Shown here in pieces: positions 7,590 to 32,494 of a DNA stretch of 46,701 nucleotides (position 1 is the stretch's first letter; each line of letters starts with the position of its first letter). This DNA is from a virus (taxonomy: Duplodnaviria; Heunggongvirae; Uroviricota; Caudoviricetes). The stretch lies in IMG/VR virus record IMGVR_UViG_3300045988_115807; one strand, 5' to 3'. The translations under genes were made by a program, and so were the position numbers. The notes under the pieces were generated by a model. The model did no database searches. It had not been told where the DNA came from and saw only the letters and a program-made list of their open reading frames with translations.

Positions 7590-7915
7590 AAACCTTCCGC
7601 TGGAAAGTGAAACCCGGTATGGATGTGGCTTCGGCCCCTTCTGTAAGAAAGGTGCGCTTTGGTGATGGCTATTCCCAGCGAGCGCCTGCCGGGCTGAATG
7701 CCAACCTGAAAACGTACAGCGTGACGCTTTCTGTCCCCCGTTGGGAGGCCACGGTACTGGAGTCGTTTCTGGAAGAGCACGGGGGCTGGAAAGCCTTTCT
7801 GTGGACGCCGCCTTATGAGTGGCGGCAGATAAAGGTGACCTGCGCAAAATGGTCGTCGCGGGTCAGTATGCTGCGTGTTGAGTTCAGCGCAGAGTTTGAA
7901 CAGGTGGTGAACTGA
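7586..7915 (+). CDS. M: tail tip protein M
   Basis: MKTFRWKVKPGMDVASAPSVRKVRFGDGYSQRAPAGLNANLKTYSVTLSVP... matches lambda M (109 aa). Confidence 0.9.
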   Translation: MKTFRWKVKPGMDVASAPSVRKVRFGDGYSQRAPAGLNANLKTYSVTLSVPRWEATVLESFLEEHGGWKAFLWTPPYEWRQIKVTCAKWSSRVSMLRVEFSAEFEQVVN

Positions 7916-8613
7916 TGCAGGATATCCGGCAGGAAACACTGAATGAATGCACCCGCGCGGAGCAGTCGGCCAGCGTGGTGCTCTGGGAAATCGACCTGAC
8001 AGAGGTCGGTGGAGAACGTTATTTTTTCTGTAATGAGCAGAACGAAAAAGGTGAGCCGGTCACCTGGCAGGGGCGACAGTATCAGCCGTATCCCATTCAG
8101 GGGAGTGGTTTTGAACTGAATGGCAAAGGCACCAGTACGCGCCCCACGCTGACGGTTTCTAACCTGTACGGTGTGGTCACCGGGATGGCGGAAGATCTGC
8201 AGAGTCTGGTCGGCGGAACGGTGGTCCGGCGTAAGGTTTACGCCCGTTTTCTGGATGCGGTGAACTTCGTCAACGGAAACAGCGAAGCCGATCCGGAGCA
8301 GGAGGTGATCAGCCGCTGGCGCATCGAGCAGTGCAGCGAACTGAACGCGGTTAGCGCGGCCTTTGTGCTGTCTACTCCGACGGAAACGGATGGTGCTGTT
8401 TTTCCGGGACGTATCATGCTGGCCAACACCTGCACCTGGACCTATCGCGGTGATGAGTGCGGTTATCACGGTCCGGCGGTCGCGGATGAATATGACCAGC
8501 CGACGTCCGATATCACGAAGGATAAATGCAGCAAATGTCTGAGCGGCTGTAAGTTCCGCAATAACGTCGGCAACTTTGGCGGTTTCCTTTCCATTAACAA
8601 ACTTTCGCAGTAA
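7915..8613 (+). CDS. L: tail tip protein L
   Basis: 232 aa as lambda L; MQDIRQETLNECTRAEQSASVVLWEIDLTEVGGERYFFCNE... Confidence 0.9.
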   Translation: MQDIRQETLNECTRAEQSASVVLWEIDLTEVGGERYFFCNEQNEKGEPVTWQGRQYQPYPIQGSGFELNGKGTSTRPTLTVSNLYGVVTGMAEDLQSLVGGTVVRRKVYARFLDAVNFVNGNSEADPEQEVISRWRIEQCSELNAVSAAFVLSTPTETDGAVFPGRIMLANTCTWTYRGDECGYHGPAVADEYDQPTSDITKDKCSKCLSGCKFRNNVGNFGGFLSINKLSQ

Positions 8614-8618: not shown

Positions 8619-9362
8619 ATGACAGAGACAGAATCAGCGATTCTGGCGCACGCCCGGCGATGTGCGCCAGCGGAGTCGTGCGGCTTCGTGGTGAGAACGC
8701 CGGAGGGGGAAAGATATTTTCCCTGCGTGAATATTTCCGGTGAGCCGGAGGATTATTTCCGGATGGCTCCGGAGGACTGGCTGCAGGCAGAAATGCAGGG
8801 TGAGATTGTGGCGCTGGTCCACAGTCATCCCGGTGGTCTGCCCTGGCTGAGTGAGGCTGACCGGCGGCTGCAGGTGCAGAGTGATTTGCCGTGGTGGCTG
8901 GTCTGCCGGGGGGCGATTCACAAGTTCCGCTGTGTGCCGCATCTTACCGGGCGGCGCTTTGAGCACGGGGTGACGGACTGTTACACGCTGTTCCGGGATG
9001 CTTACCATCTGGCGGGGATTGAGATGCCGGATTTTCATCGCGGGGATGACTGGTGGCGTCACGGTCAGAATCTCTATCTTGACAATATGGAGGCGACTGG
9101 TTTTTACCGTGTCGCACTGACAGAGGCGCAGCCTGGCGACGTGCTGCTGTGCTGCTTTGGTTCATCGGTGCCGAATCATGCCGCCATTTACTGTGGTGAC
9201 GGCGAGCTGCTGCACCATATTCCTGAACAACTGAGCAAACGAGAGAGGTATACCGACAAATGGCAGCGACGCACACACTCCCTCTGGCGTCACCGGGCAT
9301 GGCACGCATCTGCCTTTACGGGGATTTGCAACGATTTGGCCGCCGCATCGATCTTCGTGTGA
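8619..9362 (+). CDS. K: tail tip assembly protein K (JAB/MPN plus NlpC/P60-like)
   Basis: MTETESAILAHARRCAPAESCGFVV...HSHPGG... lambda K-like; full ORF taken (an internal start near 8763 is possible); 3' end overlaps I by 103 nt. Confidence 0.85.
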   Translation: MTETESAILAHARRCAPAESCGFVVRTPEGERYFPCVNISGEPEDYFRMAPEDWLQAEMQGEIVALVHSHPGGLPWLSEADRRLQVQSDLPWWLVCRGAIHKFRCVPHLTGRRFEHGVTDCYTLFRDAYHLAGIEMPDFHRGDDWWRHGQNLYLDNMEATGFYRVALTEAQPGDVLLCCFGSSVPNHAAIYCGDGELLHHIPEQLSKRERYTDKWQRRTHSLWRHRAWHASAFTGICNDLAAASIFV

Positions 9363-9931
9363 AAACGGGGGCTGAAGCTATCCGGGCGCTGGCCACACAG
9401 CTCCCGGCGTTTCGTCAGAAACTGAGCGACGGCTGGTATCAGGTACGGATTGCCGGGCGGGATGTCAGCACGTCCGGATTAACGGCGCAGTTACATGAGA
9501 CTCTGCCTGATGGCGCTGTGATTCATATTGTTCCCAGAGTCGCCGGGGCCAAGTCAGGTGGTGTATTCCAGATTGTCCTGGGAGCTGCCGCCATTGCCGG
9601 ATCATTCTTTACTGCCGGAGCCACCCTTGCAGCATGGGGGGCAGCCATTGGGGCCGGTGGTATGACCGGCATCCTGTTTTCTCTCGGTGCCAGTATGGTG
9701 CTCGGTGGTGTGGCGCAGATGCTGGCACCGAAAGCCAGAACTCCCCGTACACAGACAACGGATAACGGCAAACAGAACACCTATTTTTCCTCACTGGATA
9801 ACATGGTTGCTCAGGGCAATGTTCTGCCTGTTCTGTACGGTGAAATGCGTGTGGGGTCGCGGGTGGTTTCTCAGGAGATCAGCACGGCAGACGAAGGGGA
9901 CGGTGGTCAGGTTGTGGTGATTGGTCGCTGA
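9260..9931 (+). CDS. I: tail tip assembly protein I
   Basis: 223 aa; MAATHTLPLASPGMARICLYGDLQRFGRRIDLRVKTGAEAIRALATQLPAFRQ... lambda I-like. Confidence 0.9.
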   Translation: MAATHTLPLASPGMARICLYGDLQRFGRRIDLRVKTGAEAIRALATQLPAFRQKLSDGWYQVRIAGRDVSTSGLTAQLHETLPDGAVIHIVPRVAGAKSGGVFQIVLGAAAIAGSFFTAGATLAAWGAAIGAGGMTGILFSLGASMVLGGVAQMLAPKARTPRTQTTDNGKQNTYFSSLDNMVAQGNVLPVLYGEMRVGSRVVSQEISTADEGDGGQVVVIGR

Positions 9932-9991: not shown

Positions 9992-12900
9992 ATGGGTAAA
10001 GGCAGCAGTAAGGGGCATACCCCGCGCGAAGCGAAGGATAACCTGAAATCCACGCAGTTACTGAGCGTGATTGATGCGATCAGTGAAGGGCCGATTGAAG
10101 GTCCGGTGGATGGATTAAAAAGCGTGCTGCTGAACAGTACGCCGGTGCTGGACAGTGAGGGGAATACCAATATATCCGGCGTCACGGTGGTGTTCCGGGC
10201 AGGTGAGCAGGAGCAGACACCGCCGGAGGGATTTGAATCCTCCGGCTCCGAGACGGTGCTGGGTACGGAAGTGAAGTACGACACGCCGATTACCCGGACC
10301 ATCACGTCTGCAAACATCGACCGTCTGCGCTTTACCTTCGGTGTGCAGGCACTGGTGGAAACCACCTCAAAGGGTGACAGGAATCCGTCGGAAGTCCGTC
10401 TGCTGGTTCAGATACAGCGTAATGGTGGCTGGGTGACGGAAAAAGACATCACCATTAAGGGCAAAACCACCTCGCAGTATCTGGCCTCGGTGGTGGTGGG
10501 TAACCTGCCGCCGCGCCCGTTTAATATCCGGATGCGCAGAATGACGCCGGACAGCACCACAGACCAGCTGCAGAACAAAACGCTCTGGTCGTCATACACC
10601 GAAATCATCGATGTGAAACAGTGCTACCCGAACACGGCACTGGTCGGCGTGCAGGTGGATTCGGAGCAGTTCGGCAGCCAGCAGGTGAGCCGTAATTATC
10701 ATCTTCGCGGGCGCATTCTGCAGGTGCCGTCGAACTATAATCCGCAGACGCGGCAATACAGCGGTATCTGGGACGGGACGTTTAAACCGGCATACAGCAA
10801 CAACATGGCCTGGTGTCTGTGGGATATGCTGACCCATCCGCGCTACGGCATGGGGAAGCGTCTCGGTGCGGCGGATGTGGACAAATGGGCGCTGTATGTC
10901 ATCGGCCAGAATTGCGACCAGTCGGTGCCGGACGGTTTTGGCGGCACGGAGCCGCGCATCACCTGTAACGCTTACCTGACCACACAGCGCAAGGCGTGGG
11001 ATGTGCTCAGTGATTTCTGCTCGGCGATGCGCTGTATGCCGGTATGGAACGGGCAGACGCTGACGTTCGTGCAGGACCGACCGTCGGATAAGGTGTGGAC
11101 CTATAACCGCAGTAATGTGGTGATGCCGGATGATGGCGCGCCGTTCCGCTACAGCTTCAGCGCCCTGAAGGACCGCCATAATGCCGTTGAGGTGAACTGG
11201 ATTGACCCGGATAACGGCTGGGAAACGGCAACAGAGCTTGTGGAGGACACGCAGGCCATTGCCCGTTACGGTCGTAACGTCACGAAGATGGATGCCTTTG
11301 GCTGTACCAGCCGGGGGCAGGCACACCGCGCCGGGCTGTGGCTGATTAAAACGGAACTGCTGGAAACGCAGACCGTGGATTTCAGCGTCGGCGCAGAAGG
11401 GCTTCGCCATGTACCGGGCGATGTTATTGAAATCTGTGATGATGACTATGCCGGTATCAGCACCGGTGGTCGTGTGCTGGCGGTGAACAGCCAGACCCGG
11501 ACGCTGACGCTCGACCGTGAAATCACGCTGCCATCCTCCGGTACCACGCTGATAAGCCTGGTTGACGGAAGTGGCAATCCGGTCAGCGTGGAGGTTCAGT
11601 CCGTCACCGATGGCGTGAAGGTAAAAGTGAGCCGTGTTCCTGATGGCGTTGCCGGATACAGCGTGTGGGGTCTGAAGCTGCCGACGCTGCGCCAGCGACT
11701 GTTCCGCTGCGTGAGTATCCGTGAGAACGACGACGGCACGTATGCCATCACTGCCGTGCAGCATGTACCGGAGAAAGAAGCCATCGTGGATAACGGGGCG
11801 CACTTTGACGGTGACCAGAGCGGCACGGTGAATGGTGTCACGCCGCCAGCAGTGCAGCACCTGACTGCCGAAGTCACCGCAGACAGCGGGGAATATCAGG
11901 TACTGGCGCGATGGGACACGCCGAAGGTGGTGAAGGGGGTGAGCTTTATGCTTCGCCTGACCGTGGCAGCGGATGACGGCAGTGAGCGGCTTGTCAGCAC
12001 AGCCCGGACGACGGAAACCACATACCGCTTCAGGCAACTGGCGCTGGGGCGTTACACGCTGACAGTCCGGGCAGTAAATGCGTGGGGGCAGCAGGGCGAT
12101 CCGGCGTCGGTATCGTTCCGGATTGCCGCACCGTCAGCGCCGTCGCGGATTGAGCTGACTCCGGGCTATTTTCAGATCACCGCCACGCCGCATCTTGCCG
12201 TTTATGACCCGACGGTACAGTTTGAGTTCTGGTTCTCGGAAAAGCGGATTGCGGATATCAGGCAGGTTGAAACCACAGCCCGCTATCTTGGCACGGCGCT
12301 GTACTGGATAGCTGCCAGTATCAATATCAGGCCGGGCCATGATTATTATTTTTACATCCGCAGTGTGAACACCGTTGGCAAATCGGCATTCGTGGAGGCT
12401 GTTGGCCAGCCGAGTGATGATGCATCCGGCTATCTGGATTTTTTCAAAGGAGAGATAGGGAAAACCCATCTGGCTCAGGAGTTGTGGACGCAGATTGATA
12501 ACGGTCAGCTTGCGCCTGACCTGGCGGAAATCAGAACGTCCATCACGGATGTCAGTAATGAAATCACGCAGACCGTCAATAAGAAACTGGAAGACCAGAG
12601 TGCAGCGATCCAGCAGATACAGAAGGTTCAGGTTGATACAAATAATAACCTGAACAGCATGTGGGCTGTGAAGCTGCAGCAGATGCAGGACGGACGCCTT
12701 TATATCGCGGGTATTGGTGCCGGTATTGAAAACACCCCTGACGGCATGCAGAGTCAGGTGCTGCTGGCGGCAGACAGGATTGCGATGATTAATCCTGCGA
12801 ATGGCAACACAAAGCCGATGTTTGTTGGGCAGGGCGATCAGATATACATGAATGAAGTGTTCCTGAAATATCTGACGGCTCCCACCATTACCAGCGGCGG

Positions 12901-13471
12901 TAATCCTCCGGCATTTTCCCTGACACCGGACGGGCGGCTGACGGCGAAAAATGCCGATATCAGCGGTAACGTGAATGCGAACTCCGGGACGCTCAACAAC
13001 GTCACGATTAACGAGAACTGTCGGGTTCTGGGAAAACTGTCCGCCAACCAGATTGAAGGTGATCTCGTTAAAACAGTGGGCAAAGCTTTCCCCCGTGACT
13101 CCCGTGCACCGGAACGGTGGCCATCAGGGACCATTACCGTCAGGGTTTATGACGATCAGCCGTTTGACCGGCAAATTGTTATTCCAGCGGTGGCTTTCAG
13201 CGGTGCCAGACATGAACGGGAGAATAGCGATACTTATTCGTCATGCCGCCTGATAGTGAAGAAAAACGGGGCTGAAATTTATAACCGAACGGCTCTGGAT
13301 AATACTCTGATTTACACGGGTGTTATTGATATGCCTGCAGGCAGTGGCGTAATGACACTGGAGTTTTCGGTATCAGCATGGTGGGTAAATGGCTGGTATC
13401 CCACAGCAAGTATCAGCGATTTGCTGGTTGTGGTGATGAAGAAAGCCACCGCAGGCATCAGTATCAGCTGA
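9992..13471 (+). CDS. J: central tail fibre / host specificity protein J
   Basis: 1159 aa; first ~1000 aa near-identical to lambda J from memory; the C-terminal ~150 aa diverge from the lambda LamB-binding domain. Confidence 0.95.
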
Positions 13472-13538: not shown

Positions 13539-14138
13539 ATGCGTAAATTATGTGCTGTTATTCTGTCCGCAGTAGTCTGGCTGGTTGCCGCTGGTACGCC
13601 AGCGAGCGCAGCAGAGCATCAGTCCACACTAAGCGCCGGGTATCTTCAGGCCCATACTGATATGCCAGGCAGTGATGACCTGAAGGGCATTAACGTGAAA
13701 TACCGTTATGAATTTACGGACACGCTGGGGCTGGTGACGTCATTCAGTTATGCCAATGCCAAAGATGAGCAAAAAACGCATTACAGCGATACCCGCTGGC
13801 ATGAAGATTCAGTGCGTAACCGCTGGTTCAGCATGATGGCGGGGCCATCTGTACGCGTGAATGAATGGTTCAGTGCTTATGCGATGGCAGGTGTGGCTTA
13901 CAGCCGTGTTTCGACGTTCTCCGGGGATTATCTCCGCGTAACTGACAACAAGGGGAAAACGCACGATGTGCTGACCGGAAGTGATGACGATCGCCACAGC
14001 AACACGTCTCTGGCGTGGGGAGCTGGCGTGCAGTTTAACCCGACCGAATCCGTGGCCATTGATATTGCTTATGAAGGCTCCGGCAGTGGCGACTGGCGCA
14101 CTGACGGTTTCATCGTGGGTGTCGGTTATAAGTTCTGA
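13539..14138 (+). CDS. lom: Lom outer-membrane protein (Ail/OmpX family moron)
   Basis: MRKLCAVILSAVVWLVAAGTPASAAEHQSTLSAGYLQ...FIVGVGYKF matches lambda Lom; signal peptide present. Confidence 0.9.
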   Translation: MRKLCAVILSAVVWLVAAGTPASAAEHQSTLSAGYLQAHTDMPGSDDLKGINVKYRYEFTDTLGLVTSFSYANAKDEQKTHYSDTRWHEDSVRNRWFSMMAGPSVRVNEWFSAYAMAGVAYSRVSTFSGDYLRVTDNKGKTHDVLTGSDDDRHSNTSLAWGAGVQFNPTESVAIDIAYEGSGSGDWRTDGFIVGVGYKF

Positions 14139-14191: not shown

Positions 14192-14202
14192 GTGGAGTGG
14201 AT

Positions 14203-16581
14203 ATGGCAGCAGTAAAAATCTCAGGTGTGCTGAAAGATGGTGCGGGAAAACCAATACAGAACTGCACTATTCAACTGAAGGCAAAGCGTAACAGCACCAC
14301 GGTACTGGTGAACACGGTGGCCTCTGAAAATCCGGATGAAGCCGGGCGTTACAGCATGGATGTTGAGTATGGTCAGTACAGCGTCACCCTGCTGGTTGAA
14401 GGTTTTCCGCCTTCACATGCCGGGACCATTACCGTCTATGAAGGTTCCAGACCAGGTACGCTGAATGATTTTCTCGGTGCCATGACGGAAGATGATGTCA
14501 TGCCGGAGGCATTGCGTCGTTTTGAGGCAATGGTGGAAGAAGCGGCACGCAACGCCGAAGCCGCCTCTCAGAGCGCAGCGGCGGCAAAGAAATCCGAAAC
14601 TGCAGCGGCTTCATCGAAGAACGCGGCGAAAACCTCAGAAACGAATGCAGCTAACAGCGCACAGGCGGCAGCGTCCTCGCAGACTGCATCGGCAAACTCC
14701 GCGACAGCAGCCAAAAAATCAGAAACCAACGCGAAAAACAGCGAGACAGCCGCAAAGACGAGCGAAACCAACGCGAAGTCCAGCCAGACGGCAGCGAAAA
14801 CCAGCGAAACGAATGCCAAAGCCAGTGAAACTGCCGCGAAAAATAGCCAGAATGCAGCAGCCGAAAGCGAGAGCGCGGCAGCCGGTTCTGCGACTTCAGC
14901 AGCTGGATCAGCAACTGCTGCGGCTAACAGCCAGAAAGCTGCGAAGACGAGTGAAACTAACTCAAAGTCCAGCCAGACGGCAGCGAAGACCAGCGAAACG
15001 AATGCCAAAGCCAGCGAAACTGCGGCGAAAAACAGTCAGGATGCAGCAGCCGAAAGCGAGAGTGCTGCAGCTGGCTCTGCAAGCGCGGCGGCTGCTTCTG
15101 CCACTGCATCAGCCAACAGTCAAAAAGCTGCAAAAACCAGTGAAACCAACGCAAAGGCGAGCGAGACTGCGGCGGCTAACTCGGCGAAAGCATCCGCAGC
15201 AAGCCAGACGGCTGCAAAAGCAAGTGAAGACGCAGCCAGAGAGTATGCAAGCCAGGCTGCGGAGCCGTATAAACAAGTTTTGCAGCCGCTTCCCGATGTG
15301 TGGATACCGTTTAACGATTCACTGGATATGATTACGGGCTTTTCGCCGTCATATAAAAAGATTGTTATTGGTGATGATGAAATAACGATGCCTGGCGATA
15401 AGGTTGTAAAGTTTAAACGCGCATCGAAAGCAACCTATATTAATAAATCTGGTGTGCTGACAGAGGCTGCCATTGACGAGCCACGATTTGAACGTGATGG
15501 CCTGCTTATTGAGGGGCAAAGAACAAACTACATGCTCAATTCGGAAAACCCTGCCAGTTGGGGGCGATCGTCAAATATGGATGTTCCCGAAACCGGGAAG
15601 GATAGTTTTGGTTTTACCTATGGAAAGTTCGTCTGTAACGATTCTCTGATTGGGCAAACCTCAGCCATTAATATGGCATCAATTGCTGCAACAAAGTCAG
15701 TTGATGTCTCAGGCGATAATAAATACGTGACAACCTCATGTCGTTTTAAAACAGAACTGCAGGTAAGGTTGCGTATCCGGTTTGATAAATATGACGGTAG
15801 CGCAACAACTTTTCTTGGTGATGCGTATATTGATACACAAACGCTTGAAATTAATATGACAGGCGGTGCTGCCTCAAGGATTACAGCGAGAGTCAGAAAG
15901 GACGAAGCTACCGGATGGATTTTTGCAGAGGCAACAATTCAGGCAATTGATGGGGAGTTAAAAATAGGTTCTCAGATACAGTATTCTCCTAAGCAGGGCG
16001 GGGCAACCGTATCTGGTGACTATATTTATCTGGCCACCCCACAAGTAGAAAATGGGCCTTGTGTATCATCTTTTATTATATCAGGAACGACGGCGGCGAC
16101 CCGCGCAAGCGATATAGTTACAGTTCCCATTAAGAATAATCTTTATAATCTTCCTTTTACGGTTCTTTGTGAGGTACATAAGAACTGGTATAAAACGCCA
16201 AATGCAGCGCCGCGTGTTTTTGATACCGGCGGTCATCAAACCGGAGCGGCTATTATTCTTGGGTTCGGATCTTCGGCAGATGGGCCAGACGGATTTCCTT
16301 ATTGCGATATTGGAGGAGCTAACAGACGGGTAAACGAAAACGCATCGCTTGAAAAAATGGTTATGGGGATGCGTGTAAAATCAGATCAGTCTACGTGCTC
16401 AGTAAGTAACGGGCGCATATCCAGCGAAAAAAAGACTACGTGGTCCTATATTCAGAACTCTGCAACCATCCGTATTGGAGGCCAGACTACAGCAGGGTTA
16501 CGTCATTTATTTGGTCATATCAGGAATTTCAGAATATGGCACAAGGCATTGACTGATGCTCAGGTGGGGGAGTCAATCTAA
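14203..16581 (+). CDS. stf: side tail fibre protein (lambda Stf-like N-terminus, Ala/Ser/Thr-rich repeat shaft, divergent C-terminal domain)
   Basis: MAAVKISGVLKDGAGKPIQNCTIQLKAKRNSTTVLVNTVASENPDEAGRYSMDVEYGQYSVTLLVEGFPPSHAGTITVYEG... matches the lambda Stf N-terminus; ATG at 14203 preferred over the GTG at 14197 used by the ORF track. Confidence 0.85.
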   Translation: MAAVKISGVLKDGAGKPIQNCTIQLKAKRNSTTVLVNTVASENPDEAGRYSMDVEYGQYSVTLLVEGFPPSHAGTITVYEGSRPGTLNDFLGAMTEDDVMPEALRRFEAMVEEAARNAEAASQSAAAAKKSETAAASSKNAAKTSETNAANSAQAAASSQTASANSATAAKKSETNAKNSETAAKTSETNAKSSQTAAKTSETNAKASETAAKNSQNAAAESESAAAGSATSAAGSATAAANSQKAAKTSETNSKSSQTAAKTSETNAKASETAAKNSQDAAAESESAAAGSASAAAASATASANSQKAAKTSETNAKASETAAANSAKASAASQTAAKASEDAAREYASQAAEPYKQVLQPLPDVWIPFNDSLDMITGFSPSYKKIVIGDDEITMPGDKVVKFKRASKATYINKSGVLTEAAIDEPRFERDGLLIEGQRTNYMLNSENPASWGRSSNMDVPETGKDSFGFTYGKFVCNDSLIGQTSAINMASIAATKSVDVSGDNKYVTTSCRFKTELQVRLRIRFDKYDGSATTFLGDAYIDTQTLEINMTGGAASRITARVRKDEATGWIFAEATIQAIDGELKIGSQIQYSPKQGGATVSGDYIYLATPQVENGPCVSSFIISGTTAATRASDIVTVPIKNNLYNLPFTVLCEVHKNWYKTPNAAPRVFDTGGHQTGAAIILGFGSSADGPDGFPYCDIGGANRRVNENASLEKMVMGMRVKSDQSTCSVSNGRISSEKKTTWSYIQNSATIRIGGQTTAGLRHLFGHIRNFRIWHKALTDAQVGESI
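14755..15132. repeat. 189-bp (63-codon) tandem duplication inside stf, built from 21-bp heptad-like subrepeats
   Basis: Protein segment KTSETNAKSSQTAAKTSETNAKASETAAKNSQNAAAESESAAAGSA... recurs 63 aa later; DNA copies begin at 14755 and 14944. Low-complexity shadow ORFs on both strands confirm the periodicity. Confidence 0.8.
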
Positions 16582-16862
16582 TGAAAGATTTAACACTCAA
16601 ATTTGCCGACAGGGCCGACTTTTCGGCCTTTATGGAGAGTGCTGGCTATTATGATGACGAGTCGATGCAGGATGATATTCTTATTGACGTGATAGGTAAC
16701 GTGTACAAAGAAACCGGAGAACTTACTGAAGATGGCGAGCCGGTATGTGTTAAGGAAGACGGATATTTTGTAAACGTGCGCATCATTAATGATGTGAAAA
16801 CACCGTCAATATTCGATGAATACGTGGTTGCTGTTGAGCATCAACTTCGTGGCTGGATGTGA
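16581..16862 (+). CDS. hypothetical protein (93 aa) downstream of stf
   Basis: ORF with start overlapping the stf stop (TAATG); acidic; no recognisable motif. Confidence 0.5.
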   Translation: MKDLTLKFADRADFSAFMESAGYYDDESMQDDILIDVIGNVYKETGELTEDGEPVCVKEDGYFVNVRIINDVKTPSIFDEYVVAVEHQLRGWM

Positions 16863-16871: not shown

Positions 16872-17912
16872 ATGGCTACATCGACAGTAATTCCTGATGA
16901 CATCAAAACGCTAAAATCCGATGTTAGCAAATTAAAAAACGATCAAGGAAGCTACGTAACAAAATCATATGTAGACAGCAAAAATGAAACCGTTGGTGAC
17001 TGGTCTGCTTCATGGTATCAGCAGGTATTGCCAACTAGCGGAGCTATATTTGGGAGAAAACTCCGCTCAACTCACAGGACGGCAGGTGTTGAGGATGCAT
17101 ATTGCGAACTATACCTCAAAAAATGGATAGACAGTCCAGGTAACGCAATGGCGCGCCTTAACCTGAACGATAACGGGACAAACATTTGCTGGGACTTTAC
17201 CAACCTTTATGGCGGTACGATGATTTTTCCCGGTGACAGCGGATACCTCAAAATGGGTAACTGCCTTATGTCATACAGCAAGCGTGGAAGTAACGCGCTT
17301 ATTAAATTTGATTACACCGACACATTACAGATCAAATATGCCAATCATGGGTCAACCATGACATTAAACACACAGGGAACCGCTTATGCTGGTGTTACTG
17401 CTCAATTGTGGGGCAACTCCAGCCGTCCTGTTGTTTATGAAGTCGGTGTTGATGGTGGCGCTTATATGTTCTATGCGCAGAAAACTACCAGCAATACCTA
17501 CGAATTAACGGTTAACGGCGCGTGCAATGCAAGTGCATTTAATCAAGGCTCTGACCGGGATCTGAAAGACAATATTCAGGTGATCGATAATGCAACCGAC
17601 CGCATCCGTAAAATGAACGGCTATACATACACGCTTAAAGAAAACGGTATGCCCTATGCTGGTGTCATTGCACAGGAAGCTCTGGAAGCAATCCCAGAAG
17701 TTGTAGGTTCCGCAATGAAATATCAGGACGGTGCAAGCGGATCGGAAGGTGAAGAAGGTGAACGTTATTACACAGTAGATTATTCTGGTGTTACTGGCTT
17801 GCTTGTTCAGGTAGCCAGAGAGTCAGACGACAGAATAACAGCACTGGAAGAAGAAAACGCAGAATTAAGACAAAGATTATCTGCAATTGAGGCGGCGCTT
17901 GCGTCTAAATAA
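16872..17912 (+). CDS. tail fibre protein with C-terminal intramolecular chaperone (peptidase S74-like) domain
   Basis: GAGGAAG RBS; C-terminal region ...NQGSDRDLKDNIQVIDNATDRIRKMNGYTYTLKENG...YAGVIAQEALEAIPEVV...YYTVDYSGVTGLL...ITALEEENAELRQRL resembles the self-cleaving chaperone domain of endosialidase/T5-type fibres. Confidence 0.7.
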   Translation: MATSTVIPDDIKTLKSDVSKLKNDQGSYVTKSYVDSKNETVGDWSASWYQQVLPTSGAIFGRKLRSTHRTAGVEDAYCELYLKKWIDSPGNAMARLNLNDNGTNICWDFTNLYGGTMIFPGDSGYLKMGNCLMSYSKRGSNALIKFDYTDTLQIKYANHGSTMTLNTQGTAYAGVTAQLWGNSSRPVVYEVGVDGGAYMFYAQKTTSNTYELTVNGACNASAFNQGSDRDLKDNIQVIDNATDRIRKMNGYTYTLKENGMPYAGVIAQEALEAIPEVVGSAMKYQDGASGSEGEEGERYYTVDYSGVTGLLVQVARESDDRITALEEENAELRQRLSAIEAALASK

Positions 17913-18410: not shown

Positions 18411-19376
18411 TTAATTATCAGTAGATTGTTCCTCTAGTAACAACTCAATTCTGCTTAGTATTTCTTTAGATATTTTTCGGCTATCAATTTTTATAGTTAC
18501 AAAATTACCTTTATATCTAGCCGTGATCCCTTCCCCATATTTTTTCTCGTCTTTTGTTTTTTCCTCGTCGCCAACCAGAACAGAGTCAGATAATATTTGT
18601 ATAATCCGTGAAGCTTCTAAATCCTCGCCGTTTTTTTTAATTGCCAGAAGATGATGAGCAGCATTGCTCATGGCAGCCATGTTTTTTTTGTAGACCTTAA
18701 ACAAAGAATCTCCAGCACGAGCTGACAGTTCTCCTGGATGATTGAAGATAGCTAATATATCTTTTGGTAGACCAGCTGTATTAATACAGCGAGTGATAAT
18801 ATTTCTGTCTATATTTTCAGCCTCGGCTAATGCTTTAACGTTACCATCAAAGTCATTTAGCTTGCGTAAGTATCTCTTTCCTCTTTCGTATGCACTAATA
18901 GGCCTATAATCGTTACCAATTTGGGATAACCAATGCATCTGTTCATCGTCGAGATCACCTATTAAGACGCGATAGTCACATCCTGTTAATATCGCTGCTT
19001 TTCTTCTACGTGAGCCGTCAGCGACTTCAACGACTCCAGACACTTTTCTGGCGAAAGCTGGATTTTGTTGTCCAGACGTTAGAAAAGATGGGATTAAATC
19101 GGCTAGAGAGGATTCATTTAATAAATCTTGATCGCGTTCATTACCTAGCCATACCATTGTTGCCATTTCAACTTTATCTGCGGGAATTGTCTCTAACTTA
19201 AAGTTAACATTACGTCCGCATACTGGCAAAGTTATGCTGTTACCGGTTAATGAACTCAGTTGACGTTTTAAATCACCAACCATAGGTGATACGGGCTGAT
19301 GTTCAGGGGCATGATGATTATTACTCATAATGCGATTAATATCTGGAGCATTTTTTAGAAGAGAGCGCTGTTTCAT
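18411..19376 (-). CDS. sopB: partition protein SopB (ParB-like centromere-binding protein)
   Basis: ...ITLPVCGRNVNFKLE...WLGNERDQDLLNE...LIPSFLTSGQQNPAFARKVSGVVEVADGSRRRKAA...GNDYRPISAYERGKRY... closely parallels F-plasmid SopB from memory. Confidence 0.9.
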   Translation of the reverse strand: MKQRSLLKNAPDINRIMSNNHHAPEHQPVSPMVGDLKRQLSSLTGNSITLPVCGRNVNFKLETIPADKVEMATMVWLGNERDQDLLNESSLADLIPSFLTSGQQNPAFARKVSGVVEVADGSRRRKAAILTGCDYRVLIGDLDDEQMHWLSQIGNDYRPISAYERGKRYLRKLNDFDGNVKALAEAENIDRNIITRCINTAGLPKDILAIFNHPGELSARAGDSLFKVYKKNMAAMSNAAHHLLAIKKNGEDLEASRIIQILSDSVLVGDEEKTKDEKKYGEGITARYKGNFVTIKIDSRKISKEILSRIELLLEEQSTDN

Positions 19377-20542
19377 TATTCGTTCTCCCAGCGAGGTTTT
19401 ATTAGATCATCAAAAATTTCTCGGCAAACAGGGTCCCATATAGAAACAGCATTTCTCCATGCATTCAATGTTGAACGTTGGTTTGCTGCTTGTTCAAATA
19501 CTGTTCTCATTTTTATCTGGCCTTTACCTACTTCATCGGTAACGCGTACAACCTGACGTAATACCATTGATCCCCATGTATTTCTTATTTGTTCTTCCAT
19601 CCATCGTGATTGATTCCCTGTAGTGAGACTATATTTAGTCAGAAGTAAGCGAACGGTTGGCTCAAATCCACCTAGGTCAACGCTTTCCAATAGATCGAGA
19701 AGCATTGTGAAAAACTGTAGAACAGAAGCGTAATCAAATAATTCTGCAGGTGTAGCAACAACAATAACGTCAGCGGCACAAACAACGTTAATGGTTCCTG
19801 TACCGAGGTTCGGAGCACTATCTATAACGATAACATCGTAGTTATCCCAAACTGATTCAATAGCTGCGCGCAGCATAAGGTGTGGAGGATGAGGCAATTT
19901 ACCCTGAGCATGATATTGCATGAGATCTGTTTCTATACGATGTAAAGCTAGGCAGCTAGGGATAATGTCTAGCCCAGGCCAACATGTTGGCTTTATAGCA
20001 TATTCAGCGTTATCGCGTTCTCCTAAGTAAAATGGCAGTAAAGTATCCTCGGCATGGATATGTAAATCAGGAACATAACCGTGATACATAGAGGCCGTGC
20101 CTTGAGGATCGTTACCTTCAACCAAAAGAACACGATGACCTTGTAATGCTAACCATTGAGCTTGATGTACCGCAGACGATGTTTTATAAACGCCGCCTTT
20201 GTGTGACATAACGGCAAGCACAACAGGGTTTTTATCTTGTGGTCGTTGGTTTGGGTTGCCAAAAACTGCTCGCATACTGTTGATTTGATCTATGGTATAA
20301 CCAGCACGACGTTCAATTCTTCCTCTCATTTCAAAGTCAGGTGCAGGTAAACGCCCGCTCTTCTCAGCATCTCTAATTGCTTGAGGAGTTACACCAATTA
20401 AATCTGCTACTTCAGTTATACCCCATCGGCGGGTGATACGCCGAGCTTCAGGACTATCATCACCGAATTGAGCGATAGCAATTGCTTGGGTCATTTCTTG
20501 ACCTCTCGTAACACAATCTTGCAATAACTTTTTCAAAGACAT
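19376..20542 (-). CDS. sopA: partition ATPase SopA (ParA, Walker-type)
   Basis: ...AIAIAQFGDDSPEARRITRRW...HKGGVYKTS...LLVEGNDPQGTASMYHGYVPDLHIHAEDTLLPFYLGE...IDSAPNLG... near-colinear with F SopA from memory. Confidence 0.95.
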   Translation of the reverse strand: MSLKKLLQDCVTRGQEMTQAIAIAQFGDDSPEARRITRRWGITEVADLIGVTPQAIRDAEKSGRLPAPDFEMRGRIERRAGYTIDQINSMRAVFGNPNQRPQDKNPVVLAVMSHKGGVYKTSSAVHQAQWLALQGHRVLLVEGNDPQGTASMYHGYVPDLHIHAEDTLLPFYLGERDNAEYAIKPTCWPGLDIIPSCLALHRIETDLMQYHAQGKLPHPPHLMLRAAIESVWDNYDVIVIDSAPNLGTGTINVVCAADVIVVATPAELFDYASVLQFFTMLLDLLESVDLGGFEPTVRLLLTKYSLTTGNQSRWMEEQIRNTWGSMVLRQVVRVTDEVGKGQIKMRTVFEQAANQRSTLNAWRNAVSIWDPVCREIFDDLIKPRWENE

Positions 20543-21191: not shown

Positions 21192-23093
21192 ATGAGCAAA
21201 GTAAAAATCGGTGAATTAATAAACTCACTTGTTAGCGATGTTGAGTCAATAGATAACTCTGACCGTCCTCAAGGGGAGAAAACAAAAAAAATAAAGGCTG
21301 TTGCATTAAAATTTAAAAATGCATTATTTAATGACAAGCGAAAGTTTAGGGGGAAAGGATTAGAAAAAAGAATTACAGCCAACACATTCAATGCCTATAT
21401 GAGCAGGGCCAGAAAACGGTTTGATGATAAACTTCATCATAGCTTTGAAAAAAATATACATCGCCTATCTGAAAAGTATCCTTTATATAATGAGGAGCTA
21501 TTGTCATGGCTTTCTCTACCTGCTGCCGATATTCGCCAGAGAATGTCAGCTTTACAGGCAAAATTAAAATTAATTCTCCCTCTATCAGAAGATTTATCTA
21601 ATATCAGAATTGGCGATAACAAAAGTCATAATAAGTTATTGAAATTATCAAATAAATATAAAGAGTGGCAATTCGCCATTTCTGATTTAACTAGCGATAA
21701 CTGGAAAGATAAGCGCGATTATTTATATAAATTACTACAGCAAGGATCTGCCTTACTTGAGGAGTTGAATCAGCTAAAAGTTAACCATGAGATTCTCTAT
21801 CATCTTCAACTAAGCCCTGCCGAACGTGCATCTATCCAGCAACGATGGGCGGACGTTCTGCACAATAAGAAACGTAACGTGGTGGTCATTGATTACCCTA
21901 AATATATGCAAGCTATTTACGATATTATAAATAGCCCTGCTACATTAAATAATCTAAACACTCGTTCAGGTATGGCTCCTTTGGCATTTGCACTTGCTGC
22001 ATTGTCAGGAAGACGAATGATTGAGATTATGTATCAAGGTACATTTACTGTTTCTGGTAAGTATACCGTTGATTTTTTAGGCCAAGCTAAAAAAAGAACT
22101 TCTGATAATATAACCAGAAAAATATATACATTATGCGAAGCAAAAACATTTGTTTATTTAATAAATGTACTTCGCTCATGCCCAGCAGCATCTGATTTTG
22201 ATGATGTCGTTAAAGGTTATGGAGATAACGACACACGCTCTGAAAACGGACGTATTAATGCCATATTAGCAAAGGCTTTTAACCCGTGGGTTAAATCATT
22301 TTTTAAAGATGACCGCCGTGTTTATAAAGATAGTCGTGCTATTTATGCCCGTATTGCGTATGAAATGTTTTTCCGCGTAGATCCTCGTTGGAAAAACGTA
22401 GATGAAGATGTTTTCTTTATGGAAATTTTAGGCCATGACGATGAAAACACTCAATTACACTATAAGCAATTCAAGCTGGCCAACTTCTCAAAGACATGGA
22501 GGCCAAATACTGGAAACGAAAATACCAGGCTGGAAGCATTGCAGCAGCTTGATGACGAAATGCCTGGATTCGCCAGAGGAGATGCCGGGGTTCGTCTGCA
22601 TAACACAGTTAAGCAGCTGGTAGAGCAGGACCCCTCTATAAAAATCACGAACAGCACTCTAAGAGCGTTCAAATTTAGCCCAACAATGATTAGTCGATAC
22701 CTGGAATTTGCTGCTGATGCTCTGGGGCAATTTGTTGGCGAAAACGGACAATGGCAACTGAAAATAGATACTCCAGAAATCGTTATGCCTGACGAAGAAG
22801 AACTGGAAGCAATACCTGAACTGGCGGATGAATTATCAGAGGATGACGATCTGGATGACGACGAAATTGAGATAGAGGAAGAGGAAGAGGAAGAGGAAGA
22901 TAGCGTAGAAGAACAGCAACCGCCTGCACCTTCTTCGCCTGTATCTAAGCCGGTATTTAAGCCGGTGAGAAATATTGGTGATGGCTCATACGTTGTTGAG
23001 TTTCATTATAATGGCCAGAATTATGCGTGGTCCGGCAGTGCAAACAGCCCCATGTCAGCAATGCAGTTAGCATGGCTGACATATTTCGGTTAA
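21192..23093 (+). CDS. telN: protelomerase TelN (telomere resolvase)
   Basis: 633 aa; MSKVKIGELINSLVSDVESIDNSDRPQGEKTKKIKA...RSGMAPLAFALAALSGRRMIEIM...HDDENTQLHYKQFKLANF... matches N15 TelN from memory; acidic Glu/Asp-rich C-terminal stretch. Confidence 0.95.
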   Translation: MSKVKIGELINSLVSDVESIDNSDRPQGEKTKKIKAVALKFKNALFNDKRKFRGKGLEKRITANTFNAYMSRARKRFDDKLHHSFEKNIHRLSEKYPLYNEELLSWLSLPAADIRQRMSALQAKLKLILPLSEDLSNIRIGDNKSHNKLLKLSNKYKEWQFAISDLTSDNWKDKRDYLYKLLQQGSALLEELNQLKVNHEILYHLQLSPAERASIQQRWADVLHNKKRNVVVIDYPKYMQAIYDIINSPATLNNLNTRSGMAPLAFALAALSGRRMIEIMYQGTFTVSGKYTVDFLGQAKKRTSDNITRKIYTLCEAKTFVYLINVLRSCPAASDFDDVVKGYGDNDTRSENGRINAILAKAFNPWVKSFFKDDRRVYKDSRAIYARIAYEMFFRVDPRWKNVDEDVFFMEILGHDDENTQLHYKQFKLANFSKTWRPNTGNENTRLEALQQLDDEMPGFARGDAGVRLHNTVKQLVEQDPSIKITNSTLRAFKFSPTMISRYLEFAADALGQFVGENGQWQLKIDTPEIVMPDEEELEAIPELADELSEDDDLDDDEIEIEEEEEEEEDSVEEQQPPAPSSPVSKPVFKPVRNIGDGSYVVEFHYNGQNYAWSGSANSPMSAMQLAWLTYFG

Positions 23094-26449: not shown

Positions 26450-26641
26450 TTACTCCCCGTTCACCGAAAATTCACGATAGAAACGTTTCCACATACGATA
26501 AGTCTGCGCAAATTGTTCACCACGAAACATCGCCTTCCTGGCCTTCATGTTTTCCTTGTGAGACTTTCGGTCTATGAACCAAAACCATTGATGGAACACA
26601 CAAAGCAAGAGACACAAAGATAATATCCAATCATTACCCAT
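26450..26641 (-). CDS. small hydrophobic protein (63 aa) overlapping the repA stop
   Basis: Internal ATG of ORF 26450-26758 (MGNDWILSLCLLLCVFHQWFWF...), overlapping the repA 3' end by 8 nt. Confidence 0.35.
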   Translation of the reverse strand: MGNDWILSLCLLLCVFHQWFWFIDRKSHKENMKARKAMFRGEQFAQTYRMWKRFYREFSVNGE

Positions 26642-29600
26642 AGAAAGCGCCCTGCTCTTCGTAGCTGCATGAGCTATTCCCCGTAATGTATTCACGTAAC
26701 CGCCGCAGCTCATTGCTGGAAAGGTGATCCATGAACTCTGTGAGGTACAGGGATGCAAACGTCATAGCTATGCTGGCTGATGACCATGATGACATAGTGG
26801 CCAACTCCTCACTGGAAAGCGCACTCATCGCCCAGGACTCAGGTACAGCCACTGGCAACACGGCCAAAGCCTCAGAAATTACTGAATGAGGGGCGTTTTG
26901 AACCTGCTCGTTTGTGGATCGCGTTTTATCATCCATATATATATTGAGATCCAAATCGCGATCCATTTCGATGGCTGTCTTCTCGGCTTTACGCGTTTTT
27001 AGGGTTAGGCCATCTTTCTGACGCTGAACAAGAATATCCAGCATAAATGCCGCTGATTCAGGCTCAACAAAACGCAAGGTTGGACGCTTATCGCCGTCTC
27101 TGCCGCGACGTTTACCTGTTTTAAGGCCAAGAGAGTCGCAAATGTTTTTAAACAACGCTTCCGGCACTTTAGGCTTCCCTTTTGGCGTCATAAAACCACC
27201 AATGTGCAGAACGTTATTCAACAGGTCACGGCGTTCGGCTGTCATGAGGTTATCTCGAGCGAATTTGAGACGCTCCTGAGTCGCCTCGCCGGTCATAGTC
27301 TCAGGGTTGATACCGCAGTCGATAAAGTACTGCCGGAGAGTTGCTGATTTAAGCGCATAGAAACCGCGCGCCCCGACTTCAACAGTAGGAGTAGCTTTTA
27401 CCTTGTGATCGATTATTCCAGGGAATTTAGTTTTAAAGACATCATCAGCCTGCTCGCGAGTCATCGCGGTCACTACAAAATATTGCCACTGTCCCGCCTG
27501 ACGGTATGTGTAGGTAAAATTGATGGCTGCTTCTTCCCGGTCGTAACGACGAGCTGTTACCTCATCTAAAAGCATTGTTTCATAGCGGCGAACTTTGTCT
27601 CGAGCACCATCGAAATAGAATTTCAGCGTGCCTTCTTCAACCGGTAGTTTCAGTTCGTTTTCAATATCCCAGCGGACAAGTTTTGCCTGTTCTTCAAGCG
27701 TCAGCGCGCGTTTTTTTAGCAGTTCTTCACGCTCTGATTCTTGTGGTGTTTCTGTATTGAGGTGCAGATCCAGTGTCTGTTCCCACACAATATCCCGCGC
27801 TTCTTTACGCAGATCTTTACCGATATCATTCGCAGCATAATCGGTGGCCAGCGGTGATACCTTATAACCGTCGCTGTGCATGATGCAGATCATGTTGCTG
27901 GCGTAGTCGTTACGCGCAGTCGCTTCAATTGCGGCTGCTTTAATTTTCATCCTGGTAAAGTCGGTATTGGCCACCCCCATTGATATACGGTCGCCATCGA
28001 AAACGACATCCGTAAGTTCACCGTTCATACCTGCGGTAGCAAGCAATGCCTGGGCGAATGCTCGTTCTATTTTTTGCGGGTCAGTTTCACGTTTTGCACG
28101 AGCTTTATCAAAGCCGATAATAAATTCTTTTGCTGTACGGTCGCGGCGTAGCATTTGCACTGCATCACTGGGTACAACTTCACCACAGAACATGCCGAAA
28201 TGACGGTCAAAATGTTTTTGCTCAATCGACACGCCGGATGAAATAGACGGGCTATAAATCAGGCCGTCGTATTTTTTGACCATCTTTTTCGGTTGATTGG
28301 TAAATGCTTCAACTTCTGGCTCTGGTTTGTTTTTCTGGTTTACACACAGAAATTTCTTACCAGGAAAATGCATTCTCAGGGTGGCTGTCACATCTTCTGC
28401 AAAGGTGGAGCTGTCGGTGGCCAACATGATTTTTTCGCCATCCGATACAGCTTTCACCACCTCGGTCATGATGCGATCTTTTTCTGTATAAAAAACCCGG
28501 ATTGGCTCACCTGTTTCGCGGTTGCGAACATCAACAGGTAATTCAATTACGTGGATCTGCAGCCATGCCGGTAAACCTAGTTCTTCACGGCGTTTCATAG
28601 CCAGTTCAGCCAGGTCAACCAGCAGATCGTTCGCATCAGCATCCACCATGATTGGGTGTTGTTCCGTTCTGGCCAGCGCGTCAATTAGCGTATTGAATAC
28701 AGCCACCGGGTTTTCCATAGCCCGACCGGAAAGAACGGCACGTAGCCCTTGTGTGGCCTCGTCAAAGCCAAAATAGTCGTGCTGGCGCATCAACGGTTGC
28801 CAGCAGTTTTTAACAATCGAGTTTATGCAGATGGTCAGTTTACTGGCGTATGGAGCCATTTCCTGATAGCCAGGGTCCTGATAGTGCAGGATATCGGTTT
28901 TTACACCTTTTCCTTCTGTCATCATTTCCCACAGGCCACCAATAAGGGAAACACGGTGAGCAACAGAGATACCACGTTCTGAGCTATGCATTAAAGGTCG
29001 TAACAATCCAGTAGATTTGCCGGAACCCATACCAGCACGAACGATGACTATCCCCTGTAGTGATTGCACATACTTCAGGACGTCATCGGTCATTACCGAA
29101 GTTTCAAAACGCTTATAGGTGATATGTTGAGGACGTTTATTGGGATCAGTTATGCGTTCGCTGAATGAGCGCGGAGCCTGGGCAATACGGCACTTTTTAT
29201 TCAGGCGACGGGCAATGTGGTCTTTTACCGTAGCGCGATAGATATTTTCCAGCCCCATTTCACGCAGAACGATGCAGAACATGTTAAATAAGTCTGACGG
29301 ACTGTTAGGAACCGGACAGGTTAGCATGCCAATATCCACCGCTCTCAGCAGCTCTTTGGCAAAAGTACGACGGTTATCCCGCTTAATTGTCTTCAGGCGG
29401 TTGAGCGTCAGAGATAGCAAATCAGTGCCGGTTTTCAGGCGGTTTGCAGTTGCAAACAGTTGACGTGCTGTTTCACGAAGTCCACGCAGTTTGTGCAGGT
29501 CGTTGAAGTCACTGCACTCCATTTGCGGATCGTCTTCAAAAGTTGGATAGACGCAGCGGACATCGTTGAATTTCGATAAGATTTCATAGCCAGTCCGCAG

Positions 29601-30629
29601 GCCGGTATTCCCTTTTCCTTCTGTGGCTGATTTCCGGTCATTATCCAGTGCGCAGGTGATTTTTGCCGCCGGGTACATGTTTACCAGTTGTTCCACAACA
29701 TGAACCATGTTATTAGCGGATACAGCGACAACCACAGCGTCAAAGCGTTTATCTTTTTTCGTGGCAAGCCAGATGGATGCACCAGTAGCAAAACCTTCTG
29801 TAACAGCGATGTTTTGCGCCCCTTTTAGCTCACCGATAACAAAGCAGGCACCGACGAAATCGCCGCTGGTTACGGCGCTGGTCTGGTATTTTCCACCTTG
29901 TTTGTCGATTCGCTGCCAACCCACAATACGACCATCGTAACGACCGTCCAGGTGAGCCAGAGGGATAGCCATATACGTGGTTGGCCCCCTGCTCCATTTT
30001 GCGCTGTCGTGACTGGTCACGCGACGCACATCACACGAATTAAAAACGTCACGAATACCTTTTTTAATCGCATATGGCCATGAGCCGTCTTCTGCAGGAG
30101 CATGTTCCCACGCGCTGTGGAATGCCAGCCATCCCAGCAAACGTTCATGGTCCATTTGGTTGTTTTTCAGGTCATTAATTCGTTTTTGTTCTTCACGGCG
30201 ACGACGTGCTTCGGCCTGACGTTCTATTCTTGCCCGTTCTTCTTCCGGTTGTGCGACCACGGTCGCATTATTCCGTTGTTGCTCACGGCGATATTCAGAA
30301 AACAGGAAGGAGAAACCGCTCCATGAGCCAGCATCGCTGCCTTTATGGACGAAGTTAATGAACGGGTAATCAATCCCTTTGCTGTGTTCCAGCCGGGAGT
30401 AAATTTCTACGCGTCCTTTGAGGCTCTTTTCGAGAGCTTCTGGAGATGTTTTATTGTATGAAGAGTAACGCTCAACACCCCCGCGAGGGTTGAGTTGGAT
30501 GTTGTCGGAACAGGCAGACCAGTTGATACCAGCCATCTGTGCCAGCTCGGTTAGTTCATCCCGTGCTGCTTCAATTAGCGAGAACGGATCGCTGCCAAAG
30601 CGATCCGCATAGAAATCGTTTAATGTCAT
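26634..30629 (-). CDS. repA: replication protein RepA (primase-helicase, N15 RepA-like)
   Basis: 1331-aa ORF; contains Walker-A-like GMGSGKST; size and position next to cB match N15 repA, whose 3' part is reported to contain the replication origin. Confidence 0.9.
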   Translation of the reverse strand: MTLNDFYADRFGSDPFSLIEAARDELTELAQMAGINWSACSDNIQLNPRGGVERYSSYNKTSPEALEKSLKGRVEIYSRLEHSKGIDYPFINFVHKGSDAGSWSGFSFLFSEYRREQQRNNATVVAQPEEERARIERQAEARRRREEQKRINDLKNNQMDHERLLGWLAFHSAWEHAPAEDGSWPYAIKKGIRDVFNSCDVRRVTSHDSAKWSRGPTTYMAIPLAHLDGRYDGRIVGWQRIDKQGGKYQTSAVTSGDFVGACFVIGELKGAQNIAVTEGFATGASIWLATKKDKRFDAVVVAVSANNMVHVVEQLVNMYPAAKITCALDNDRKSATEGKGNTGLRTGYEILSKFNDVRCVYPTFEDDPQMECSDFNDLHKLRGLRETARQLFATANRLKTGTDLLSLTLNRLKTIKRDNRRTFAKELLRAVDIGMLTCPVPNSPSDLFNMFCIVLREMGLENIYRATVKDHIARRLNKKCRIAQAPRSFSERITDPNKRPQHITYKRFETSVMTDDVLKYVQSLQGIVIVRAGMGSGKSTGLLRPLMHSSERGISVAHRVSLIGGLWEMMTEGKGVKTDILHYQDPGYQEMAPYASKLTICINSIVKNCWQPLMRQHDYFGFDEATQGLRAVLSGRAMENPVAVFNTLIDALARTEQHPIMVDADANDLLVDLAELAMKRREELGLPAWLQIHVIELPVDVRNRETGEPIRVFYTEKDRIMTEVVKAVSDGEKIMLATDSSTFAEDVTATLRMHFPGKKFLCVNQKNKPEPEVEAFTNQPKKMVKKYDGLIYSPSISSGVSIEQKHFDRHFGMFCGEVVPSDAVQMLRRDRTAKEFIIGFDKARAKRETDPQKIERAFAQALLATAGMNGELTDVVFDGDRISMGVANTDFTRMKIKAAAIEATARNDYASNMICIMHSDGYKVSPLATDYAANDIGKDLRKEARDIVWEQTLDLHLNTETPQESEREELLKKRALTLEEQAKLVRWDIENELKLPVEEGTLKFYFDGARDKVRRYETMLLDEVTARRYDREEAAINFTYTYRQAGQWQYFVVTAMTREQADDVFKTKFPGIIDHKVKATPTVEVGARGFYALKSATLRQYFIDCGINPETMTGEATQERLKFARDNLMTAERRDLLNNVLHIGGFMTPKGKPKVPEALFKNICDSLGLKTGKRRGRDGDKRPTLRFVEPESAAFMLDILVQRQKDGLTLKTRKAEKTAIEMDRDLDLNIYMDDKTRSTNEQVQNAPHSVISEALAVLPVAVPESWAMSALSSEELATMSSWSSASIAMTFASLYLTEFMDHLSSNELRRLREYITGNSSCSYEEQGAFYG
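30250..30266. repeat. sopC-like centromere palindrome (copy within the repA 5' region, 17/18 match)
   Basis: GTGCGACCACGGTCGCA(T); same dyad as the other four copies. Confidence 0.55.
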
Positions 30630-30682
30630 TTTTTAGCCATTCCATGCGAATTATGTTTTTTCGGGTTGAAAAAATCCGCAGG

Positions 30683-30739
30683 AGCAGCCACAATAAACGC
30701 ATCTTGAATTGACGGAATCCGTCGCGTTACTGTGGCTGC
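30683..30739. promoter_or_regulatory. 13-bp inverted repeat pair in the repA promoter region
   Basis: GCAGCCACAATAA ...30 bp... TTACTGTGGCTGC (one mismatch), enclosing TTGAATTGACGG. Confidence 0.35.
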
Positions 30740-30752
30740 TTCCTGAAAAGGA

Positions 30753-31471: not shown

Positions 31472-31493
31472 AGCTTAATCATAAATGATCTTC

Positions 31494-32484: not shown

Positions 32485-32494
32485 ACAAGTTATG

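Follow-up and report, generated by a model that had tools for sequence, protein, structure and literature searches.

What receptor does a phage recognise when its central tail fibre follows that of lambda over most of its length and departs from it at the tip? The question is raised by gene J in a 46,701-nucleotide stretch of viral DNA (IMG/VR record IMGVR_UViG_3300045988_115807), which is referred to here as the window. The original prediction held that J is near-identical to lambda J up to about position 13000, that its last roughly 150 residues differ, and that the phage may accordingly use a receptor other than LamB, or a LamB variant. In our assessment J is probably an intact, functional central tail fibre composed of three exchangeable modules, with a tip that most likely uses OmpC.

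Gene J (central tail fibre, i.e. tip attachment or host specificity protein) is a single intact, full-length open reading frame at 9992..13471 on the + strand (1159 aa plus stop), whose N-terminal start resembles that of lambda J. Its Pfam matches (Phage-tail_3, FNIII-A_GpJ, Ig_J, Ig_J_second, Phage_Tail_Tip and Ig_GpJ_C) all lie above the curated cut-offs. Together they make up the complete set of gpJ domains, the last of which is the Ig-like receptor-binding domain at the C-terminus. The gene also occupies the position typical of its family, closing the tail gene cluster with lom and stf downstream. The open reading frames upstream of it (7915-8613, 8619-9362 and 9260-9931) correspond in matching phage records to minor tail proteins and tail tip assembly protein K, and gene I directly precedes J in the lambda, PhiR47_1 and PhiR46_1 records. 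An antisense open reading frame of 481 aa (10592-12037, − strand) lies wholly within J, and is probably not a gene but a consequence of the high GC content in this part of J (59–61%).

Over its full length, J is 83% identical by BLASTP to lambda J (NC_001416 15505-18903, 1132 aa), but this identity is very unevenly distributed. The N-terminal module (aa 1-805; 9992..12406, + strand), comprising the hub domains and two FNIII/Ig domains, is about 97–98% identical to lambda J in protein (45–50 of every 50 residues across aa 1-800) and 88–99% in nucleotides, and is also 90–100% identical to phage 21, PhiR46_1 and PhiR47_1. Identity per 50-residue window then falls to 22, 14 and 30 residues across aa 801-950, recovers to 45 at aa 951-1000, and falls again to 27, 23 and 14 across aa 1001-1150. 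At the nucleotide level, the second fall runs from 90% at 12872-12961 to 66% at 12962-13051 and 46–61% beyond, so the divergence had been placed correctly. The predicted difference in the last ~150 residues was likewise borne out (43% identity, with the quoted peptide strings present), and near-identity further upstream held for aa 1-805, although a second divergent block at aa 806-955 had been overlooked. Only conservative substitutions in the C-terminal domain would have spoken against the original prediction; the pairwise alignment with lambda J contains substitutions that are more than conservative, and the prediction thus stands on this point. J exceeds lambda J by 27 aa, a net difference that results from 28 extra residues in the shaft minus one residue near aa 1141. 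The Lambda_2G7a record aligns with the window's J only up to nt 3100.

The overlooked block (aa 806-955; 12407..12856, + strand), delimited by windowed identities, spans the alpha-helical shaft and the upper beta-prism; here and below, domain names for shaft, prism and receptor-binding domain follow the lambda gpJ structure paper (PMC11101478). In nucleotides it is 29–73% identical to lambda and PhiR47_1 and 93–100% identical to phage 21 and PhiR46_1, which share with the window a ‘long’ shaft allele as opposed to the short one of lambda and PhiR47_1. Among 5426 complete E. coli genomes, megablast found the long allele in 3579. The 28 residues that lambda lacks, located from alignment gaps, fall at 12497..12589 on the + strand (aa 836-856 and 860-866, with three aligned residues between), and amount to four heptads within the predicted helical shaft. 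A single-sequence AF2 model of the shaft, used for helix content only, places helices at J 812-836 and 842-899, covering the insertion, at low overall confidence (pLDDT 53, with block means of 78–88 at J 851-890). If helical, the extra residues would add ~4 nm to the shaft, and a longer shaft might tune how the receptor signal is transferred up the fibre. In lambda, part of the corresponding shaft refolds to beta-sheet upon tail opening (PMC11101478).

Between the two divergent blocks lies a short conserved junction (aa 956-1004; 12857..13003, + strand) that is nearly invariant across 21 homologues and, in 12872-12961, is 83–100% identical in nucleotides to lambda, phage 21, PhiR47_1 and PhiR46_1. 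It is probably the site of recombination between shaft and tip modules.

The second divergent block (aa 1005-1159; 13004..13468, + strand), defined by tip identities, Pfam and PDB matches, comprises the lower prism and the Ig-like receptor-binding domain. Over the last 159 residues this tip is only 43.4% identical to that of lambda and 45.5% to that of phage 434, rising to 64.5% for A8 and 67.7% for phage 21, and to 92.3% for 1A2, 92.5% for VT1-Sakai and 98.1% for PhiR47_1, a set that we refer to as the ‘1A2 / VT1-Sakai / PhiR47_1’ class. The 1A2 sequence was rebuilt, with frameshifts repaired, from an OCR-damaged listing of recoded DNA (Supplementary file 1, PMC11338833); because of this damage a few residues are uncertain and were masked, and the rebuilt tip is 98.7% identical to J of VT1-Sakai. 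Despite the divergence from lambda, the fold is that of solved gpJ tips. Pfam places Ig_GpJ_C (‘Tip attachment protein J, C-terminal receptor binding domain’) at aa 1029-1159 (E=3e-37), and phmmer against PDB sequences matches 9wca (‘A8 gpJ 713’, E=9e-76) and lambda gpJ (8xcj, E=1e-53; 8iyk, ~1e-53). An AF2 model of the tip as a monomer, built with 21 homologues, has a mean pLDDT of 68, with Ig-domain blocks mostly at 78–96 (one at 66) and disordered prism strands, as expected of a monomer; its top four Foldseek matches are 9wca, 8xck, 8xcj and 9wcb, each with probability 1.0 and query-normalised TM 0.61–0.64. Against lambda aa ~975-1132, the region of loops L1-L4, the tip lacks the close identity of a lambda-type LamB-binding allele, and the loop sequences differ. 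Its identity to 1A2 (from the OCR reconstruction) and VT1-Sakai exceeds 90% without indels, but the predicted receptor-contact hairpins are not the same. The tip is a separate allele class within the lambda gpJ receptor-binding domain family and no decayed copy.

The modules were mapped on an alignment of five J genes, those of lambda, phage 21, PhiR46_1, PhiR47_1 and the window. All four long/short-shaft by tip combinations (lambda-, phage 21- and window-class tips) are present among these five genes, indicating that the modules assort independently. At least four tip classes can be told apart: that of the window, that of phage 21, A8 and phi330 (64–68% identical to the window's), that of lambda (43%) and that of phage 434 (45.5%). 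The window's J would accordingly combine a lambda-type hub with FNIII domains (aa 1-805), a ‘long’ shaft allele as in phage 21 (aa 806-955), and a tip (aa 1005-1159) of the class that PhiR47_1, O157 VT1-Sakai and many Stx phages carry and that occurs in most E. coli genomes. The modules meet at the conserved aa 956-1004, where prophages probably exchanged them by homologous recombination.

How common is such a tip? The tip DNA of each class was searched by megablast against the 5426 complete E. coli genomes. Window-class tips occurred in 3384 genomes with a median of two copies per genome, their records including 22 at ≥ 99% and 330 at 95–99% nucleotide identity, while phage 21-class tips occurred in 2430 (about 1100 records at ≥ 80% nucleotide identity) and phage 434-class tips in 2112. 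In contrast, only 98 genomes carried a lambda-class tip, all at ≥ 99% identity, and the top matches were laboratory K-12 and B(DE3) lysogens. Within the phage collection, the window's tip class comprises 57 records at ≥ 90% protein identity, including Stx1a phages, Stx2a phages and PPompW prophages. The tip that appears divergent is therefore the common natural form, 3384 genomes against 98; it is the commonest J tip in E. coli prophages, and the lambda tip, which the original prediction had taken as the norm, is a rare allele and the outlier.

As to the receptor, the most direct evidence comes from chimeras made by grafting natural gpJ C-termini onto lambda gpJ, with the fusion point at aa 964 (Brodel et al., Nature 2024, PMC11338833). 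In lamB-deleted cells, chimera A8 works with the OmpC of K-12 as well as with that of EDL933, while chimera 1A2 delivers into lamB/ompC-deleted K-12 only upon complementation with EDL933-type OmpC (PMC11338833). A solved complex of A8 gpJ with EDL933 OmpC is available as PDB 9wcb. Consistent with A8, phage phi330, with a tip 98.8% identical to that of A8, fails on the Keio ompC mutant unless the deletion is complemented (PMC12502783). Since the characterised member of the window's class, 1A2, uses OmpC and not LamB, OmpC is the most likely receptor of the window's tip as well, and by this analogy we regard it as the probable terminal receptor. However, phage 21 shows how such reasoning can fail: its tip is 81–82% identical to the OmpC-using tips of A8 and phi330, but its native receptor is LamB, with a single J mutation adding use of OmpC and further ones that of OmpF (PMC11336670). 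Receptor choice in this tip family is thus labile, and given the difference between phage 21 and A8/phi330, assignment from 92% identity is probable yet uncertain. The prediction of a receptor other than LamB accordingly gains from the OmpC requirement of the 92% identical 1A2 tip, but not from divergence as such, because the tip of phage 21 diverged from that of lambda and still uses LamB. Our literature search found no receptor data for natural phages with a window-class tip, nor any paper describing PDB 9wca/9wcb; Mathieu et al. 2020 (2G7b) give no receptor for their lambda-like phages, and the SNIPE paper mentions PhiR47.1 for ManYZ independence only, naming no receptor.

Where in the tip does the window differ from 1A2? 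Since residue ranges for loops L1-L4 of lambda gpJ were not found in the available text of Ge & Wang 2024 (PMC11101478), we assigned the window's loops from AF2 secondary structure together with the AlphaFold3 description of phi330 (PMC12502783); the contact map therefore derives from a model of another allele (phi330) and not from a structure of the window's tip class. Hairpin 1 (aa 1071-1083; 13202..13240, + strand), predicted to form a beta-hairpin whose tip falls at aa 1077-1078, aligns with phi330 hairpin E953-S962, which in that model points into the OmpC barrel; A8, phi330 and phage 21 each have five more residues here. Hairpin 2 (aa 1129-1140; 13376..13411, + strand), for which a loop is predicted at aa 1132-1139, corresponds in the alignment to phi330 A1015-P1020, a stretch that sits on the rim of the barrel in the same model (PMC12502783). 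Loop 3 (aa 1032-1045; 13085..13126, + strand), placed by alignments and mostly coil in the AF2 model, exceeds that of the phage 21 / A8 class by four residues and is identical to that of 1A2 and VT1-Sakai; the matching loop of 434 is predicted to touch OmpC, whereas the shorter phi330 loop is not (PMC12502783).

From the window to VT1-Sakai/1A2 there are 12 substitutions, five of them in hairpin 1 (R1073K, R1076K, N1078H, S1079T and T1081I), two in hairpin 2 (W1131L and G1134N), and the others elsewhere (K1090R, T1109S, S1118H, V1120H and S1157T). Together, the two hairpins make up 25 codons (16% of the tip) and hold nine of 18 non-synonymous changes by the Nei-Gojobori method. Synonymous sites in hairpin 1 are near-saturated relative to VT1-Sakai and PhiR46_1 (7.5–8 differences at 7.8 sites), whereas the flanking sequence is about 90% identical. 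Such near-saturated synonymous change suggests that a small patch was recombined at the predicted receptor-inserting hairpin, rather than that point mutations accumulated there. The hairpins of PhiR47_1 match those of the window exactly. With seven of the 12 substitutions in the two hairpins predicted to contact OmpC, the OmpC alleles recognised may differ from those of 1A2, and we tentatively consider, as a minority possibility, that the sub-allele of the window and PhiR47_1, set apart from 1A2 by the seven hairpin residues and by S1118 and V1120, is a natural specificity variant that recognises other OmpC alleles than 1A2 does (e.g. K-12 or ECOR13-type) or has shifted to another porin. If so, it would be a case from nature of fine receptor retargeting through exchange of a patch within the tip. 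The substitutions clustered in the two hairpins also narrow down the residues to consider when specificity for OmpC alleles is to be engineered or predicted.

Three other accounts of the tip need to be weighed against use of OmpC. The tip could still use LamB and have diverged by drift or by adapting to LamB alleles, as would be the case for phage 21, whose tip is just 49.7% identical to lambda's in spite of its native use of LamB (PMC11336670); the 12 substitutions separating the window from 1A2, seven of them in predicted contact hairpins, leave some room for this. Nevertheless, we think it unlikely, as the nearest characterised tip works in lamB-deleted cells and needs OmpC, as the window's tip is distant from those of known LamB users (43% identical to lambda, 68% to phage 21), and as it differs from phage 21 in both a shorter hairpin 1 (by five residues) and a longer loop 3 (by four). 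A different outer-membrane protein, for example OmpF or another porin or transporter, might serve alone or besides OmpC, given that J of lambda and of phage 21 gains use of OmpF or OmpC through a few tip mutations and that, in the abstract of PMC12312913, J of Gifsy-1 is reported to bind OmpC, OmpX and BtuB. Yet no member of the window's allele class is reported to use such a receptor, and its closest tested member, 1A2, is OmpC-specific to the point of discriminating between OmpC alleles, which makes this account quite improbable.

It could finally be argued that the C-terminus is a decaying or non-functional remnant and that its difference from lambda carries no functional meaning. J genes of cryptic prophages are often truncated, and that of VT1-Sakai is annotated as truncated by mutation. 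Against this, the open reading frame of the window is full length with every gpJ domain above its Pfam cut-off, and dN/dS of the tip is 0.08–0.15 relative to VT1-Sakai, PhiR46_1 and PhiR47_1, from which we conclude that the tip is under purifying selection and not decaying. Furthermore, PhiR47_1, with its 98% identical tip, and the close relative PhiR46_1 were deposited as phage genomes with E. coli ECOR13 as host, and PhiR47.1 forms plaques in published assays. Decay is thus exceedingly improbable, and on the intact open reading frame and the dN/dS values we rejected the J tip as a pseudogene.

If the tip does use OmpC, how might it work? The tip retains the Ig-like fold seen in the receptor-binding domain of lambda gpJ but has different bottom hairpins. 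By analogy with lambda on LamB and A8 on OmpC, a trimeric tip would settle on a porin trimer with these hairpins inserted, and docking would then trigger rearrangement of the shaft and opening of the tail. For lambda, this docking-triggered opening is shown (PMC11101478); for the window's J it is proposed by extension.

Directly downstream of J, as in lambda, lies lom (Ail/Lom outer-membrane protein; 13539..14138, + strand; Pfam Ail_Lom, E=2e-127), followed by an intact stf encoding a side tail fibre of 794 aa (14197..16581, + strand; Pfam phage_tail_N, E=1e-66), which is a second host-range determinant acting together with J. The stf gene contains long Ala/Ser/Thr/Lys-rich repeats at ~14500-15300 (AT skew 0.56), and its C-terminal half has a GC content of ~44%. 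It is followed by a 93-aa open reading frame (16581-16862) with no Pfam match and by a 346-aa protein (16872-17912) with a Peptidase_S74 intramolecular-chaperone domain, which might serve as a second fibre or spike where lambda has tfa. The head and tail genes are lambda-type (about 95% in nucleotides). Beyond them, however, the window encodes SopB (18411-19376, − strand), SopA/ParA (19376-20542, − strand), a protelomerase with Pfam TelK_N, muzzle, catalytic and stirrup domains (21192-23093), and a 1331-aa protein (26634-30629, − strand) with Toprim and origin-binding-helicase matches, whose counterparts in N15-type phages are annotated as replication or primase proteins. The phage is therefore an N15-type telomere (linear-plasmid) prophage with lambda-type virion genes, and not the integrating lambda-like phage that had been assumed.

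The closest records to the window are PhiR46_1 and Ravinvirus YDC107_1. The latter record (CP025712.1) is mirrored around ~36,700 over ~28000-46300, with inverted duplicates of protelomerase, BRO, gp31, gp36 and repA, and resembles the product of hairpin-telomere read-through or of faulty assembly more than a true genome; at the expected place of J, its annotation lists no more than a 1494-nt ‘phage tail family protein’.

Both the modular exchange of J tips and the use of OmpC by some of them are published, and the current understanding of these fibres is unchanged by our results. Their relevance is to annotation and to the prediction of host range. The dominant tip class of E. coli prophages includes Stx phages, while lambda's LamB-binding tip is found almost only in laboratory lysogens, and labelling a gene such as this one ‘lambda J’ would wrongly imply dependence on LamB.

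Among known systems, J of PhiR47_1 (PV340566; Brenes & Laub ECOR temperate phages) has the closest tip, with three substitutions in 159 residues and none in the hairpins, but it is carried on a lambda-like short shaft in a J of 1131 aa, as opposed to the long shaft and 1159 aa of the window. 1A2 and VT1-Sakai (Sp15, O157:H7) have tips of the same class (92.3–92.5% over the last 159 residues, no indels), with the strands of the Ig domain mostly conserved and bearing 5 of the 12 differences. The junction sequence used in the 1A2 fusion is identical to that of the window, although 1A2 sits on the short shaft of lambda, and EDL933-type OmpC, not K-12 OmpC and not LamB, was shown as receptor for 1A2 only. 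A8 and phi330 (OmpC; PDB 9WCA, 9WCB) and phage 21 (LamB) form a sister class (64–68%) that has the C-terminal strand in common with the window but differs in hairpin 1 (five residues longer) and loop 3 (four shorter); phage 21 and the window, in addition, both have the long shaft. Phage 434 J (h434 host range, OmpC) is of the same family and fold and offers a natural non-LamB tip that is exchangeable with that of lambda (Lambda h434 hybrids), but it is 45.5% identical to the window's tip and has other loop lengths. Finally, the lambda gpJ–LamB complex (PDB 8XCJ/8XCK; Ge & Wang 2024, PMC11101478) shares with the window's J its family, its fold and its order of domains (hub, two FNIII domains, helical shaft, beta-prism and Ig-like receptor-binding domain), and presumably also the mechanism by which docking on a porin acts as trigger. 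It differs in its tip (43%), in the sequences of the bottom loops and in lacking the 28 extra shaft residues of the window, for which LamB is an unlikely receptor.
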